Sequence record: PQ615101
DNA length: 64,000 bases
Origin: Shigella phage SP21535
Strand: one strand, 5' to 3'
Each line of letters opens with the position of its first letter. Within the stretch, counting starts at the first letter, position 1. The translations under genes and the position numbers were made by a program. This document shows positions 20,233 to 24,678 of the stretch, in pieces. The notes under the pieces are model-generated. The model had not been told where the DNA came from. It saw only the letters and a list, made by a program, of their open reading frames with translations, and searched no databases.

Positions 20233-20973
20233 ATGATTAATAACTCTATGACAGTTGAAGAAATCCGTCTTTATTTGGGAATTGCATTAAAGGAAAAAGA
20301 TTTCGTAATTGATAAAACCGGTGTTAAAACTATTGAAATTATTGGTGCATCATTTGTAGCAGATGAACCTTTTATTTTTGGCGCTCTTAATGATGAATAC
20401 ATTCAGCGTGAACTTGAATGGTATAAGTCTCAAAGTTTGTTTGTTAAAGATATTCCAGGTGAAACGCCAAAGATTTGGCAACAGGTAGCATCTTCTAAAG
20501 GCGAAATTAACTCGAATTATGGTTGGGCCATCTGGTCAGAAGATAACTATGCTCAGTATGACATGTGTTTAGCTGAACTTGGTCAAAATCCTGATTCTCG
20601 ACGTGGTATCATGATTTATACTCGTCCATCTATGCAGTTTGACTACAATAAAGATGGTATGTCAGATTTCATGTGTACGAATACAGTACAGTACCTGATT
20701 CGTGATAAGAAAGTCAATGCAGTGGTTAACATGAGAAGTAATGATTGCTGGGCAGGCTATCGTAATGATTATGCATGGCAAAAATATGTACTAGATAAAT
20801 TAGTATCTGATTTGAATGCAGGTGATTCAACTCGTCAGTATAAAGCAGGTTCCATTATATGGAATGTCGGGAGCCTTCATGTGTATTCCCGTCATTTTTA
20901 TTTGGTTGACCATTGGTGGAAAACTGGCGAAACTCATATTGCGAAAAAAGATTATAACGGTGAGTGGAAATGA
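20233..20973 (+). CDS. 42: dCMP hydroxymethylase gp42
   Basis: ORF track, 246 aa (the T4 length); thymidylate-synthase-like fold. Confidence 0.9.
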   Translation: MINNSMTVEEIRLYLGIALKEKDFVIDKTGVKTIEIIGASFVADEPFIFGALNDEYIQRELEWYKSQSLFVKDIPGETPKIWQQVASSKGEINSNYGWAIWSEDNYAQYDMCLAELGQNPDSRRGIMIYTRPSMQFDYNKDGMSDFMCTNTVQYLIRDKKVNAVVNMRSNDCWAGYRNDYAWQKYVLDKLVSDLNAGDSTRQYKAGSIIWNVGSLHVYSRHFYLVDHWWKTGETHIAKKDYNGEWK

Positions 20974-21812
20974 TTCAATTCGTAATTCCAAGCTATCAAC
21001 GCGTAGGGGCAGTTTCTGCCCTTGATATGTTTCCGACTGATTATGAACCTCATATTGTAGTACGTGAACATGAAGAAAAAGCTTATTATGACGCTTACGG
21101 GTCTAGAGCTAAAATTATAACTATTCCTGATGATGTTAATGGAATTGCTGGTACTCGTAAAGCAATTACTGATATGTATGCAGGTCAACGAATTTGGATG
21201 ATTGATGATGATACTACTATTCGTATGAGTTCAATACGAAAGAGAGACGATAAACGGCGTGTAGATAAAGTCAATCAATTGACTCGTGAGCAATTCTATG
21301 AATTAATTCAATACGTTGAGGATGCAATGGATTGCGGGTATTATCATGGTCATGCTCGTTTACCAATTTTTAAAATTACTTCATCTTGGGGTAATTATCG
21401 TGAAAATTCATATGGATTCACGAATACATGGTATGATTTAGGAAAACTTACAACAGAACAAATTGGGTATGGAAAAATTGATTTATGTGAAGATATGTAT
21501 GCATTTCTCAATTTAATTAATCAAGGTTATCCGCATTTGGCCTTGTTCAAATATCTAGTTGTATCTGGAAAAGCACAAGCTCCTGGCGGATGTAGTTCAA
21601 TTCGTAGTAATTCAAAACATAATAGAGCTCTTGAGCAAATCAATAGAGAGTTTCCAGAGCAAGCTCGTTGGAAAACATCGAATATTGAAAAACGAAAATC
21701 GTTGGGTGAAGAAGATGAACCGCTAAAGGTTCTTCGCATGTGTGTTTCGCGTAAAGAAAAATCAGAAGCATTTCATAAGTTTAATGCTATTCATCCAATA
21801 GCAGTTGATTAA
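20970..21812 (+). CDS. Putative glycosyltransferase with a DxD-type motif at the T4 beta-gt locus (candidate HMC-DNA glucosyltransferase)
   Basis: ORF track 20964..21812; ATG at 20970 overlaps the gene 42 stop; IWMIDDDTT motif; 280 aa, unlike the 351-aa T4 beta-gt. Confidence 0.55.
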   Translation: MIQFVIPSYQRVGAVSALDMFPTDYEPHIVVREHEEKAYYDAYGSRAKIITIPDDVNGIAGTRKAITDMYAGQRIWMIDDDTTIRMSSIRKRDDKRRVDKVNQLTREQFYELIQYVEDAMDCGYYHGHARLPIFKITSSWGNYRENSYGFTNTWYDLGKLTTEQIGYGKIDLCEDMYAFLNLINQGYPHLALFKYLVVSGKAQAPGGCSSIRSNSKHNRALEQINREFPEQARWKTSNIEKRKSLGEEDEPLKVLRMCVSRKEKSEAFHKFNAIHPIAVD

Positions 21813-21889
21813 TGCCTAAATTTATTGTGTTATAATTACCCTATCTTTAACCAGTGAGGAAAATATAATGATGCTTATGGAAAAAATGA

Positions 21890-22819
21890 ATGTCTATTGC
21901 AGATTTAAAATCCCGTTTGATTAAAGCTTCCACTTCTAAAATGACTGCTGAACTGACTACATCTAAATTCTTTAATGAAAAGGATGTAATCCGTACAAAA
22001 ATCCCAATGCTTAATATCGCTATTTCTGGCGCGATTGATGGCGGCATGCAGTCTGGTTTAACTATTTTCGCAGGGCCTTCTAAACACTTTAAATCAAATA
22101 TGTCTTTGACTATGGTTGCGGCATATTTAAACAAATATCATGACGCAGTTTGTCTATTCTATGATAGCGAATTTGGTATTACTCCAGCTTATTTGCGATC
22201 CATGGGAGTTGACCCGGAACGAGTAATTCATACGCCAATTCAGTCAGTTGAACAGCTGAAAATTGATATGGTGAACCAGCTTGAAGCTATTGAGCGTGGT
22301 GAAAAGGTTATTGTATTCATCGACTCAATCGGTAATATGGCTTCTAAGAAAGAAACGGAAGATGCCTTGAATGAAAAATCTGTGGCAGATATGACTCGTG
22401 CTAAATCACTGAAGTCATTATTCCGTATTGTTACTCCTTATTTTAGCATTAAAAATATTCCATGTGTTGCGGTTAACCATACAATTGAAACAATTGAACT
22501 GTTTAGTAAAACCGTGATGACAGGTGGTTGTGTTATTGCTGGTACTAAAATCCAGATGTCCGATGGTTCTACTAAAGCAGTTGAAGATATTCGTCCAGGT
22601 GAGCGTGTTAAAACCATGGTCGGTGATAATGAAGTAACTTATGTTTGGGACCCCGAAACTCTGGCTGAAGGTACTCCTGAATGTTTCGAAATTGAATTCG
22701 AAGACGGTTATAAAGTAACTACTTCAGATACTCACAAGTTCCTGGTAATGGTTAAAGACATTCCAACTTGGGTTGAAGCTAAAGATTTAGTAGCTGGAAT
22801 GGATTGTGTTGTAAGGTAA
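21890..22819 (+). CDS. uvsX: UvsX recombinase N-terminal fragment (213 aa) fused in frame to an N-terminal split-intein half (96 aa); ends in tandem TAA TAA
   Basis: ORF track; residues 1-213 match the T4 UvsX N-terminus through ...SKTVMTGG, then Cys plus intein blocks A and B. Confidence 0.85.
   Translation: MSIADLKSRLIKASTSKMTAELTTSKFFNEKDVIRTKIPMLNIAISGAIDGGMQSGLTIFAGPSKHFKSNMSLTMVAAYLNKYHDAVCLFYDSEFGITPAYLRSMGVDPERVIHTPIQSVEQLKIDMVNQLEAIERGEKVIVFIDSIGNMASKKETEDALNEKSVADMTRAKSLKSLFRIVTPYFSIKNIPCVAVNHTIETIELFSKTVMTGGCVIAGTKIQMSDGSTKAVEDIRPGERVKTMVGDNEVTYVWDPETLAEGTPECFEIEFEDGYKVTTSDTHKFLVMVKDIPTWVEAKDLVAGMDCVVR
22529..22816 (+). mobile_element. Split intein, N-terminal half (Hint blocks A and B)
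   Basis: CVIAGTKIQMSDGSTKAVEDIRPGERV (block A) and TTSDTHKFLV...TWVEAKDLVAGMDCV (block B). Confidence 0.8.
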
Positions 22820-22824
22820 TAAAT

Positions 22825-22862
22825 ATGGGTACCGGACTAATGTATATTTTTGAGGTACCCAT
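22825..22862 (+). promoter_or_regulatory. Hairpin (9-bp stem ATGGGTACC/GGTACCCAT, 20-nt loop) occluding the endonuclease RBS and abutting its ATG
   Basis: Perfect inverted repeat at 22825-22833 and 22854-22862; SD-like GAGGT at 22852-22856 lies in the 3' arm. Confidence 0.6.
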
Positions 22863-23585
22863 ATGAATTTTGTCTATAAAATTGTGTTCAACGATAGAAT
22901 TAAAAACGGCACTCCGCCATATTACTACATAGGGAGCAAGACAAATGCTTCTTATGTAGATGGTAAGATTATTGACGCCCACGGTCGTGAGTACTATGGC
23001 TCATCGAGATATCCCGGATATCATGATTTTATCAATAATGTTACTGTTGAAATATTGGAGCAATATGATGATATTAAACACACTAAACTGCTAGAGCGCG
23101 AAAATTTCTATCAGAAACAAGTAAATGTTAAAACAAATCCAGATTATTTTAATTTAGATTATGCTTGTGGGCATAATTCATATGCTAATGCTGATTTTGC
23201 ATCATACAAGCATTATATAACAGGTAAATGTATTCGTCTTGAAAGAAACCATCCGCTTGTTAAATCTGGTGTGTATGTTGGCGTCACAAAAGGCGTGAAA
23301 TCTTCTGATGAACACCGCAAGCACATATCAGAAGGTATTACCGGAGAAAACAATGGGTTCTATGGTAAGAAACACACTAAAGAAACAATTAATAAAATAT
23401 CAGAAAAAGCAAAGAAAAGATTAAAGCATTCCCATCCTAGACAAAAAGGTGTTATCATAAACGGTATTGAATACCGGGGCGTCAGACCTGCTGCAAGAGC
23501 GTTGGGAATTAATCCTAACACAATTATCAACAAAATTAAAGCTAATATAAAAGGATGGGCTTATGCAGTAGATGCACGCGGTTAA
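22863..23585 (+). CDS. Free-standing GIY-YIG homing endonuclease between the two uvsX intein halves
   Basis: ORF track, 240 aa; YKIVFN...YYYIGSKTN (GIY-YIG); basic repeat-rich C-terminal region. Confidence 0.8.
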   Translation: MNFVYKIVFNDRIKNGTPPYYYIGSKTNASYVDGKIIDAHGREYYGSSRYPGYHDFINNVTVEILEQYDDIKHTKLLERENFYQKQVNVKTNPDYFNLDYACGHNSYANADFASYKHYITGKCIRLERNHPLVKSGVYVGVTKGVKSSDEHRKHISEGITGENNGFYGKKHTKETINKISEKAKKRLKHSHPRQKGVIINGIEYRGVRPAARALGINPNTIINKIKANIKGWAYAVDARG

Positions 23586-23693
23586 GGCATTCGAAGATAT
23601 GGTAAAAGAATTTGGAATGAACATGACAATCAAGATTATGCTTTCATGAAATATGTATATTGAAACTAGCTACTACGAAACACAAGGTAAAGT

Positions 23694-23798
23694 ATGAAAA
23701 TTAAATCTGTTAAATCTGTTGGTAAAAAAGAAGTCTATGATTTGTCTGTTGCTGACGTCGAGCATTATGTTTTAGAAAATGGTATCGTTACACACAAC
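23694..23798 (+). mobile_element. Split intein, C-terminal half (blocks F and G, ending HN, with +1 Thr)
   Basis: VYDLSV...HYVLENGIVTHN followed by T. Confidence 0.8.
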
Positions 23799-24341
23799 AC
23801 AGGCGTAATGTATTCGGCTGATACTGTATTCATTATCGGTAAGCGCCAGATTAAAGATGGTTCTGATCTTCAGGGGTATCAATTTGTTCTAAATGTAGAA
23901 AAATCTCGTACCGTTAAAGAAAAAAGTAAATTCTTTATTGATGTTAAATTTGACGGTGGCATCGATCCTTATTCTGGATTGTTAGATATGGCTCTTGAAT
24001 TAGGATTTGTGGTAAAACCTAAAAATGGCTGGTATGCTCGTGAATTTCTTGACGAAGAAACAGGCGAGATGATTCGCGAAGAAAAATCTTGGCGTGCAAA
24101 AGATACCAACTGCACTACATTCTGGGGTCCTTTATTTAAGCATCAGCCATTCCGAGATGCTATTAAACGTGCTTATCAGTTAGGTGCTATTGATAGTAAT
24201 GAAATTGTTGAAGCTGAAGTTGATGAATTAATTAACTCAAAGGTTGAAAAATTTAAATCTCCAGAAAGTAAAAGTAAATCAGCAGCTGATTTAGAAACTG
24301 ACCTAGATCAGTTAAGTGATATGGAAGAATTTAATGAATAA
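23694..24341 (+). CDS. uvsX: C-terminal split-intein half (35 aa) fused to the UvsX C-terminal fragment (180 aa)
   Basis: ORF track; MKIKSVKSVGKKEVYDLSVADVEHYVLENGIVTHN then TGVMYSADTVFIIGKRQ..., which matches the T4 UvsX C-terminus. Confidence 0.85.
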   Translation: MKIKSVKSVGKKEVYDLSVADVEHYVLENGIVTHNTGVMYSADTVFIIGKRQIKDGSDLQGYQFVLNVEKSRTVKEKSKFFIDVKFDGGIDPYSGLLDMALELGFVVKPKNGWYAREFLDEETGEMIREEKSWRAKDTNCTTFWGPLFKHQPFRDAIKRAYQLGAIDSNEIVEAEVDELINSKVEKFKSPESKSKSAADLETDLDQLSDMEEFNE

Positions 24342-24678
24342 AGATGATTTAGATTTAGATCTAGAAATTATCGATGAATCCCCCTCTTCGGAGGGGGAAG
24401 AAGAAAGAAAAGAGCGTCTTTTTAATGAATCTCTTAAGATAATTAAATCTGCTATGGAAAATGTTATCCAGGAGATTGTCATTAAACTAGAAGATGGTTC
24501 TACACATATAGTGTATGTAACTAAACTGGATTGGGTTGATGGAAAGGTTGTAATGGACTTTGCTGTTCTTGACCAAGAAAGAAAAGCTGAGTTAGCTCCT
24601 CATGTAGAAAAATGTATTACAATGCAACTACAAGATGCATTTAATAAAAGGTCAAAGAAAAAATTTAAATTCTTTTAA
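24334..24678 (+). CDS. 40: Head assembly protein gp40
   Basis: ORF track 24316..24678; ATG at 24334 overlaps the uvsX stop; position between uvsX and 41. Confidence 0.65.
   Translation: MNKDDLDLDLEIIDESPSSEGEEERKERLFNESLKIIKSAMENVIQEIVIKLEDGSTHIVYVTKLDWVDGKVVMDFAVLDQERKAELAPHVEKCITMQLQDAFNKRSKKKFKFF

Follow-up and report, generated by a model that had tools for sequence, protein, structure and literature searches.

A predicted split intein and a candidate free-standing homing endonuclease gene interrupt the recombinase gene uvsX in T-even phages

Anatomy of the uvsX locus

Genes for DNA metabolism in phages are not always carried in one piece. In the 64,000-nucleotide (nt) stretch of Shigella phage SP21535 analyzed here (sequence record PQ615101, hereafter the window), the open reading frame (ORF) list and the raw sequence show that the recombinase gene uvsX is encoded by two ORFs on the plus strand, with a third ORF between them (Table 1). 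ORF1 follows uvsX as far as ...SKTVMTGG and then continues with a Cys and 95 more residues, while ORF3 begins with 35 amino acids (aa) ending in ...ENGIVTHN, followed by a Thr and the remainder of UvsX. The two extensions correspond to the N- and C-terminal halves of a putative intein, IntN and IntC, and the two parts of UvsX to its exteins. A first-pass annotation had proposed such a broken recombinase, with a Cys-led IntN of 96 aa closed by tandem stops, a 35-aa IntC and a separately initiated ORF of 240 aa between the halves; every one of these elements was found again in the ORF list and the sequence.

The sum of the exteins also agrees with that annotation: 213 and 180 aa give 393 aa, which is also the length of the uninterrupted UvsX of Kha5h, while T4 UvsX has 391 aa. 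The joined exteins align to the Kha5h protein with three substitutions and no gaps, and to T4 UvsX likewise without gaps. At the DNA level, the junction of the joined exteins does not differ from the intein-less Kha5h allele between positions -28 and +44. The protein spliced in silico is a full-length UvsX with the Pfam RecA and T4_UVSX_C domains, and its residues 31-360 match PDB entry 3IO5 (T4 UvsX; E 1e-201). The insertion point, between Gly213 and Thr214, interrupts ...VMTGG|TGVMYS, a conserved motif in the RecA core, and the junction peptide predicted after splicing is ...TVMTGG-TGVMYSADTVFIIGK. A T(A/G)A TAA stop pair is also present in UFV01, Lion_ER11 and SEA1. We rejected translational bypass or read-through, as the 874-nt gap between the halves holds a whole ORF in another frame.

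Table 1. Features of the interrupted uvsX locus in the window, and of a doubly interrupted locus on metagenome contigs
Feature	Position	Strand	Description
ORF1	21890-22819	+	309 aa
uvsX N-extein	21890-22528	+	213 codons, ending ...SKTVMTGG; Pfam RecA and phrog_97 UvsX-like; gapless against Kha5h and T4 UvsX
IntN	22529-22816	+	96 codons; Cys1 (block A), Ser-x-x-His block B; net charge -9; NCBIfam intein_Nterm
Tandem stops TAA TAA	22817-22822	+	Close ORF1 and touch the hairpin; read from the sequence
RNA hairpin	22823-22864	+	Arms 22823-22833 and 22854-22864 (11 bp), 20-nt loop; fold prediction
ORF2, candidate free-standing homing endonuclease gene	22863-23585	+	240 aa, own ATG; predicted GIY-YIG domain about aa 1-110, NUMOD3 aa 146-180, helix-turn-helix about aa 203-226
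Spacer	23586-23693	+	108 nt; decayed small-ORF remnant; Shine-Dalgarno AAGG at 23684-23687 for the C-terminal half
ORF3	23694-24341	+	215 aa
IntC	23694-23798	+	35 codons, MKIKSVKSVGKK...VYDLSV...EHYVLENGIVTHN (blocks F and G); NCBIfam intein_Cterm 29.9 against a cut-off of 15.6 on ORF3
uvsX C-extein	23799-24341	+	Thr+1, 179 codons and stop; Pfam T4_UVSX_C, E 1.9e-39; aligned to T4 and Kha5h UvsX
Doubly interrupted uvsX, five ORFs	L017 4346-7747 (also L018, L019)		UvsX-N + IntN(1); HNH endonuclease; 142-aa IntC(1) + extein TQEMYSKTVVSGG + IntN(2); HNH/NUMOD3 endonuclease; IntC(2) + UvsX-C

The two extensions match the halves of a class-1 mini-intein

Once joined, the two extensions pass the curated thresholds of intein profiles, which bears out the Hint blocks assigned to both halves at first pass: Pfam Intein_splicing scores 43.1 against a cut-off of 35.8 bits, NCBIfam intein_Nterm 25.6 against 24.5 and intein_Cterm 30 against 15.6. 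Each half by itself scores under the Pfam thresholds. The nearest sequences with a solved structure are the naturally split Npu DnaE and gp41-1 inteins and the Pho RadA intein; the top two PDB matches ('Tako8') were discarded as repeat-protein noise, with no single significant stretch. The class-1 residue set is present (C1, S-D-T-H in block B with Ser for Thr, VYD in block F, HN and T+1), and IntN, with a net charge of -9, faces an IntC whose first 12 residues carry +5. On the strength of these profile matches and motifs, the tails of ORF1 and ORF3 can be assigned to the halves of a class-1 mini-intein, with a family resemblance far beyond chance.

Conservation was analyzed in 12 fetched lineages, all of which have the identical three-gene layout. 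Cys1, the Ser-x-x-His of block B, the block-F Asp, the terminal His-Asn and Thr+1 are unchanged in these lineages, down to 56% intein identity. The sizes of the halves vary as little: IntC has 35 aa in all lineages and IntN 96 aa, except for one with 97. The ratio of nonsynonymous to synonymous substitution rates (dN/dS) of the concatenated intein halves, relative to the window, ranges from 0.07 to 0.15 at dS of 0.7-1.7, with a median of 0.097 over 36 pairs, which denotes strong purifying selection. Intein identity follows extein identity, and is higher than that of the adjacent gp41 helicase. The invariance of the catalytic residues in the 12 lineages, together with a dN/dS near 0.1, argues that the splicing chemistry itself would be under selection, besides the mere association of the halves.

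The interrupted gene recurs in cultured T4-like phages

Searching with IntN (tblastn), we found the uvsX intein in 18 distinct cultured T4-like phages of several genera: six Tequatrovirus and 12 other Straboviridae. Their hosts belong to Escherichia, Salmonella, Klebsiella, Enterobacter, Proteus, Yersinia, Shewanella, Pseudomonas and Vibrio. The six deposited Tequatrovirus genomes (BYEP01, SYGD1, pSe_SNUABM_01, ELT1, HY03 and RPN226) share the entire locus at 94-99% identity. In Karamvirus-like phages the match, at about 77%, spans the N-terminal half and the greater part of the endonuclease gene, or 64% of the query. None of the 18 carriers is annotated as containing an intein: GenBank labels the halves as 'DNA repair protein', 'recombinase', 'protein RecA' or 'hypothetical protein', the VmeM-32 record alone mentions a 'conserved domain HintC', and PHROGs holds separate families for the two halves (phrog_8337 and phrog_18112). 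The first-pass annotation was not aware of such an arrangement at uvsX in a cultured T-even phage. Its recognition is new, but the sequence had already been deposited in these 18 genomes.

This distribution bears on two trivial explanations. The first is an assembly or sequencing artefact, such as chimeric stops or a chimeric insertion, for which we see nothing beyond the generic possibility. The same three-ORF layout in 18 independently sequenced cultured phages indicates that the stops at 22817-22822 are real, and identical junctions, stops and starts recur in genomes from different laboratories, hosts and countries as well as in metagenome contigs. The second is that uvsX has been inactivated, ORF1 and ORF3 being decaying fragments of a dispensable recombinase. 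T4 plaque formation is not strictly dependent on uvsX, and the endonuclease does decay in some lineages. Against this, exteins and intein halves are intact in the 18 phages, with conserved starts, stops and Shine-Dalgarno sequence; purifying selection on the halves is strong; the exteins of the window are only 3 aa away from an uninterrupted allele; and neither extein frameshifts, nor premature stops, nor dN/dS values near 1 were observed in carriers. Because the layout recurs in cultured lineages with invariant residues and a low dN/dS, we discard both explanations, decay as very improbable and an artefact as having a negligible chance.

ORF2 is a candidate GIY-YIG homing endonuclease

The single-sequence AlphaFold2 model of ORF2 was unusable (predicted local distance difference test score of 39) and was replaced by a model of the N-terminal domain based on a multiple sequence alignment. 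Fold comparison of the latter returned the GIY-YIG catalytic fold. The residues Y5, Y22-I23-G24, E80 and N97 are invariant in the ORF2 family and stand in the order expected for the GIY, YIG, Glu and Asn motifs. Downstream, NUMOD3 passes its Pfam threshold (40.2 against 20.4), NUMOD1 and helix-turn-helix matches are weak, and the C-terminal 75 residues (aa 159-234) match the I-TevI DNA-binding domain (PDB 1I3J, E 2e-4). Sequence-level comparisons of the catalytic domain are less conclusive. The Pfam family SegE_GIY-YIG is matched by one of nine ORF2 family members (E 0.078), hhalign against the GIY-YIG seed alignment is weak (E 0.0027, probability 11%), BLASTP against T4 SegA gives a remote match (E 0.023), and the NCBIfam model for group-I-intron endonucleases falls slightly below its cut-off (53.9 against 56.05). 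As the HMMER-level tests all failed or were weak, the GIY-YIG assignment rests on the fold comparison, at which level we accept ORF2 as a member of a divergent, Seg-like subfamily.

Signs of mobility come from comparing the split-intein cassette with its surroundings. Between the window and BYEP01, about two mismatches occur over 22289-23789, whereas mismatches in the flanks number 3-6 per 100 nt. HY03 has in common with the window the cassette and, of the proximal extein, about 200 nt; its distal N-extein is strongly divergent. The backbone of the window (24400-49000) is closest to that of IME537 (96.1%), which is not among the intein carriers. Of the 725 records that match this uvsX, only 8 have the insert. 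Such a pattern is the one expected from recent homing with co-conversion. These near-identical cassettes in divergent backgrounds are indirect evidence of homing by a presumed cleavage activity of ORF2.

A hairpin covers the start of the endonuclease gene

Directly after the tandem stops begins a hairpin with a perfect stem of 11 bp, whose 3' arm takes in half of the Shine-Dalgarno sequence GAGG (22852-22855) and, from the endonuclease start codon AUG (22863), the AU. Hairpins are found at the equivalent place in nearly all of the lineages. In the alignable clade (four sequences), compensatory double changes affect 4 of 11 pairs and 97.6% of cells are paired. Support for the hairpin thus comes from its position and covariation, the energy z-score (-1.9) being weak by itself. 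Since the stop codons abut its 5' arm, a ribosome that terminates on ORF1 could perhaps melt it.

The T4 late promoter TATAAATA is carried in the hairpins of PM2, PspYZU05 and TG1. Over the whole window its core occurs three times, compared with 10.8 +/- 2.7 in shuffled sequences, and is thus depleted. No plus-strand terminator was predicted between the three ORFs, from which we infer that they are co-transcribed.

Ahead of the ATG of the C-terminal half, the motif caaggt is kept in most of the 12 lineages, while the most divergent ones retain only aagg or lack the motif. In the spacer that contains it, a small ORF of some 60 aa, intact in PM2, PspYZU05 and Thanatos-1, has decayed: the frame-2 translation of this spacer, ...FEDMVKEFGMN..*NMYIETSYYETQGKV, is homologous to the small ORFs of PM2 and PspYZU05. 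These intact ORFs (L008 4614-4796; L011 4679-4864; L009 4433-4600) lie between the endonuclease and IntC, span about 55-69 aa and have no Pfam match; in PM2 and PspYZU05 their end overlaps the start of IntC. HY03, like the window, retains only a stop-interrupted remnant.

Unsplit, swapped, decayed and doubly fractured relatives

An exhaustive protein search with IntN returned 423 matches, including unsplit alleles that a word-indexed search had missed. Three metagenomic proteins (P0065, P0070 and P0076) are full-length UvsX carrying, at the same GG|T site, an unsplit mini-intein of 134-157 aa that belongs to the family of the window and is 43-58% identical to its joined halves. P0065 combines RecA_N, Hint and T4_UVSX_C domains in one ORF, which is present on two contigs. 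The catalytic residues are kept in these relatives, except that the penultimate His is Asn in P0076. Alignment to the unsplit forms places the split point in a variable linker after WVEAKDL, between blocks N4 and F, which is the position of endonuclease domains in full-length inteins.

The content of the gap varies too. Other nucleases occupy it in some loci, namely a canonical SegE-type GIY-YIG enzyme in Thanatos-1 and HNH enzymes in metagenomic loci including L017, and the endonuclease is frameshifted in TG1 and truncated in VmeM-32. On three metagenome contigs (L017-L019), uvsX is fractured twice: the middle ORF consists of an IntC, 13 UvsX residues and an IntN, and the second intein is of the window's family and lies at the window's site (Table 1). 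Further inteins were found in the UvsX P-loop (GPS(K/R)HFK|C; metagenomic P0077 and P0054) and at a site about 13 residues upstream of GG|T (...NH(T/V)Y...|C; metagenomic set P0077, P0054 and P0061). Given insertions at the GG|T, P-loop and upstream sites, UvsX seems to be a hot spot where inteins have entered at three sites or more.

These forms invite a broader scenario, which we put forward tentatively and consider doubtful. A single GG|T intein lineage would be seen at all stages of a fractured gene: unsplit, split, with its endonuclease swapped among three nuclease types, with it decayed, and with a second and third intein added. The split form would have been fixed under purifying selection; its gap would be a permanent landing pad on which homing endonucleases can settle again and again, and trans-splicing may have been co-opted to gate the timing of active recombinase, as homing needs UvsX.

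One related locus stands apart. On a 35.8-kb ENA contig (L015 1257-6486), uvsX is split at the window's site with ORFs of 554 and 500 aa between the halves; an N-terminal HNH-like motif is visible by eye in these ORFs, and a Pfam HNH domain was found in neither. The 161-aa ORF right after uvsX-C on this contig (P0021) is a contiguous mini-intein of the window's family with flanks of 27 and 4 aa (...NIKGG | intein | SETI).

Trans-splicing as the probable route to UvsX

We consider it likely that uvsX is here a fractured gene, in which a class-1 mini-intein inserted at Gly213/Thr214 has been split into 96 and 35 aa by a free-standing endonuclease gene of the GIY-YIG type, related to Seg and I-TevI, and in which UvsX is restored by trans-splicing. 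This reading draws on the anatomy of the locus, the family membership of its parts, their conservation under purifying selection, the covariation of the hairpin and the mosaic distribution of the cassette. Since the split intein cuts uvsX into two genes, the recombinase would have to be joined at the protein level. In the scheme we propose, the three ORFs would be co-transcribed, and ORF1 and ORF3 translated independently, the latter from its own conserved Shine-Dalgarno sequence. The acidic IntN and the basic start of IntC would then pair and rebuild the Hint fold, whereupon Cys1, the block-B His, the block-F Asp, the His-Asn pair and Thr+1 would perform protein trans-splicing, yielding a 393-aa UvsX with a native junction. 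The hairpin would hide the ribosome-binding site and AUG of the endonuclease and keep its level low. The endonuclease would cut the intein-less uvsX of co-infecting phages, and UvsX-dependent repair of the double-strand break would copy the whole cassette into them.

Several observations weigh against this reading. Block B reads Ser-x-x-His where Thr-x-x-His is usual, and a Thr serves as +1 nucleophile; both are tolerated among known inteins, and splicing may be slower with them. The net charge of the whole IntC is 0. In ORF2, the canonical position of the catalytic Arg holds no invariant Arg in the family (R12 is invariant but lies elsewhere), the N-terminal domain of the window protein has no Pfam GIY-YIG match (PF01541, PF19835), and the family profile retrieved nothing from the PDB sequences. 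No residue of ORF2 was matched with confidence to the catalytic Arg, and the GIY-YIG label given at first pass is kept at the level of the fold. As for expression signals, TATAAATA is absent from 21700-24500, hence from the hairpin of the window and its vicinity, and a sigma-70 scan was uninformative, with promoter-like sites fewer than the shuffled expectation. Splicing is predicted from sequence, as are the activity and target of the endonuclease.

In a non-covalent alternative, the intein halves would serve as affinity tags that hold the UvsX fragments together with no peptide bond between them. Phage genes that are split by a homing endonuclease and work without splicing are documented, as in the NrdA of Aeh1, whose gene is split by mobE (cited in PMC2677866, PMC3045599). 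Residues needed only for splicing are nevertheless invariant across the 12 lineages and kept in metagenomic relatives, and the dN/dS of about 0.1 also speaks against such complementation. Moreover, the break falls inside the conserved GG|TG of the RecA core, where a retained Hint domain of 131 aa would be expected to disturb the DNA-binding region. We therefore regard non-covalent assembly as improbable. The first-pass annotation had left the choice between trans-splicing and fragment complementation open; the invariant catalytic residues and low dN/dS favor trans-splicing, by inference.

Comparison with known systems

The closest precedents are the fractured genes described by Dassa, London, Stoddard, Schueler-Furman and Pietrokovski in 2009, in which split inteins (gp41-1, gp41-8, NrdJ-1, NrdA-2, IMPDH-1) accompany free-standing endonuclease genes; GIY-YIG is one of the two endonuclease types in this class, which also features hairpins and phage hosts (PMC2677866). 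The resemblance to this metagenomic arrangement, suggested at first pass, is borne out by a three-ORF layout on one strand, a split at the canonical endonuclease-insertion point, an endonuclease of the GIY-YIG type, a hairpin sequestering its start, a phage DNA-metabolism gene as host and, in sister lineages, hairpins with TATAAATA. A late promoter in a hairpin over the endonuclease start was shown for mobE and reported for fractured genes; it lies inside 10 of the 15 hairpins found in 2009, and is thus frequent and not defining (PMC2677866). There are also differences. The hairpin of the window lacks the late promoter, an unsplit form is known here at the same site, and uvsX is not among the eight host genes of the earlier study, where it appears only as an intact neighbor (PMC2677866). 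Those genes came from marine metagenome fragments, whereas the present ones belong to cultured, genetically tractable T-even coliphages.

Among solved structures, the best relatives are the Npu/Ssp DnaE and gp41-1 split inteins (4KL5, 2KEQ, 6QAZ; E 1e-5 to 3e-4). These share with the uvsX intein a split into about 100 and 35 aa, class-1 residues, an acidic N-terminal half and a basic start of the C-terminal half. Similarity is low, however, the uvsX intein has Thr+1 rather than Cys or Ser and an SxxH block B, and the DnaE halves, unlike those of uvsX, come from distant genes that are not separated by an endonuclease gene. Inteins in other recombinases of the RecA superfamily, such as Mycobacterium RecA and Pyrococcus RadA (PMC4760082), are contiguous and lie in cellular genomes, whereas that of uvsX is split and phage-borne; Pho RadA is among the matches to our intein. 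Phage MIJ3 provides a putative split intein in a cultured phage, with the difference that the host gene is PolB, the endonuclease is HNH and the phage is a jumbo Pseudomonas phage (PMC6892783).

ORF2 shares with T4 Seg proteins and I-TevI a GIY-YIG fold, a Seg-like Y-x-G-S-(G/S) motif, NUMOD3 with a helix-turn-helix, and a free-standing gene. T4 SegA adjoins uvsX and cuts it (PMC2988022), and uvsX is the presumed target of ORF2 as well. Their positions differ: segA lies next to uvsX, between it and beta-gt, whereas ORF2 lies within uvsX, in the intein gap. As segA is not present in the window, and a T2/T6-type beta-glucosyl-HMC-alpha-glucosyltransferase gene (20964-21812) lies upstream of uvsX, the two arrangements appear to be alternatives for uvsX-targeting endonucleases. 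Two other cultured phages likewise have an essential gene of DNA metabolism split by a free-standing endonuclease gene, namely Aeh1 (nrdA, by mobE) and T4 (gene 39/60, by mobA). Those systems have no intein and assemble non-covalently, and the complete Hint motifs flanking the break set the uvsX locus apart from such intein-less genes in pieces.

The type of element is therefore known; what is new is uvsX as host gene, the T-even coliphage setting and a full evolutionary series at one site. Our literature search found no earlier description of a uvsX split intein, although subscription journals were mostly outside its scope and absence is not proof; according to a 2024 paper, inteins have not been reported from coliphages (PMC11162368). 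Homing in T4-type phages depends on UvsX (PMC2988022), so that the element sits in a gene on which its own spread depends. It has been proposed that fractured genes connect mini-inteins, endonuclease-bearing inteins and split inteins as their missing link, a role that could so far not be tested genetically. T-even coliphages can be grown, crossed and mutated, which opens this architecture to genetics: in vivo trans-splicing, the fitness cost of splitting, whole-cassette homing and endonuclease turnover are all testable here, with unsplit ancestor-like, swapped-endonuclease and decayed-endonuclease forms at hand for comparison. The locus also provides protein engineering with a natural split intein that is new and compact (96 + 35 aa, Thr+1) and for which splicing is predicted, and exposes a systematic mis-annotation of the uvsX halves in deposited records.

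Additional observations

Distant relatives of IntN (34-36% identity) occur in the terminase large subunit genes of the Brevundimonas jumbo phages Kikimora and Gurke and in an unannotated ORF of Vibrio phage GR11A (6592-6858). In the Proteus phages PM2 and Pm5461, a 459-aa ORF annotated 'homing endonuclease' lies between uvsX-C and gp40 (L008 5413-6792; L010 5192-6571), a second gene resembling a mobile element at this locus. Finally, in Vibrio phage vB_VmeM-32 (L013 248-2790), the annotation divides the gp43 DNA polymerase, which lies just ahead of the fractured uvsX, into three or more pieces with ORFs between them; one piece has an HN-[TSC]-G motif, and gp43 may be a second fractured gene in that phage.

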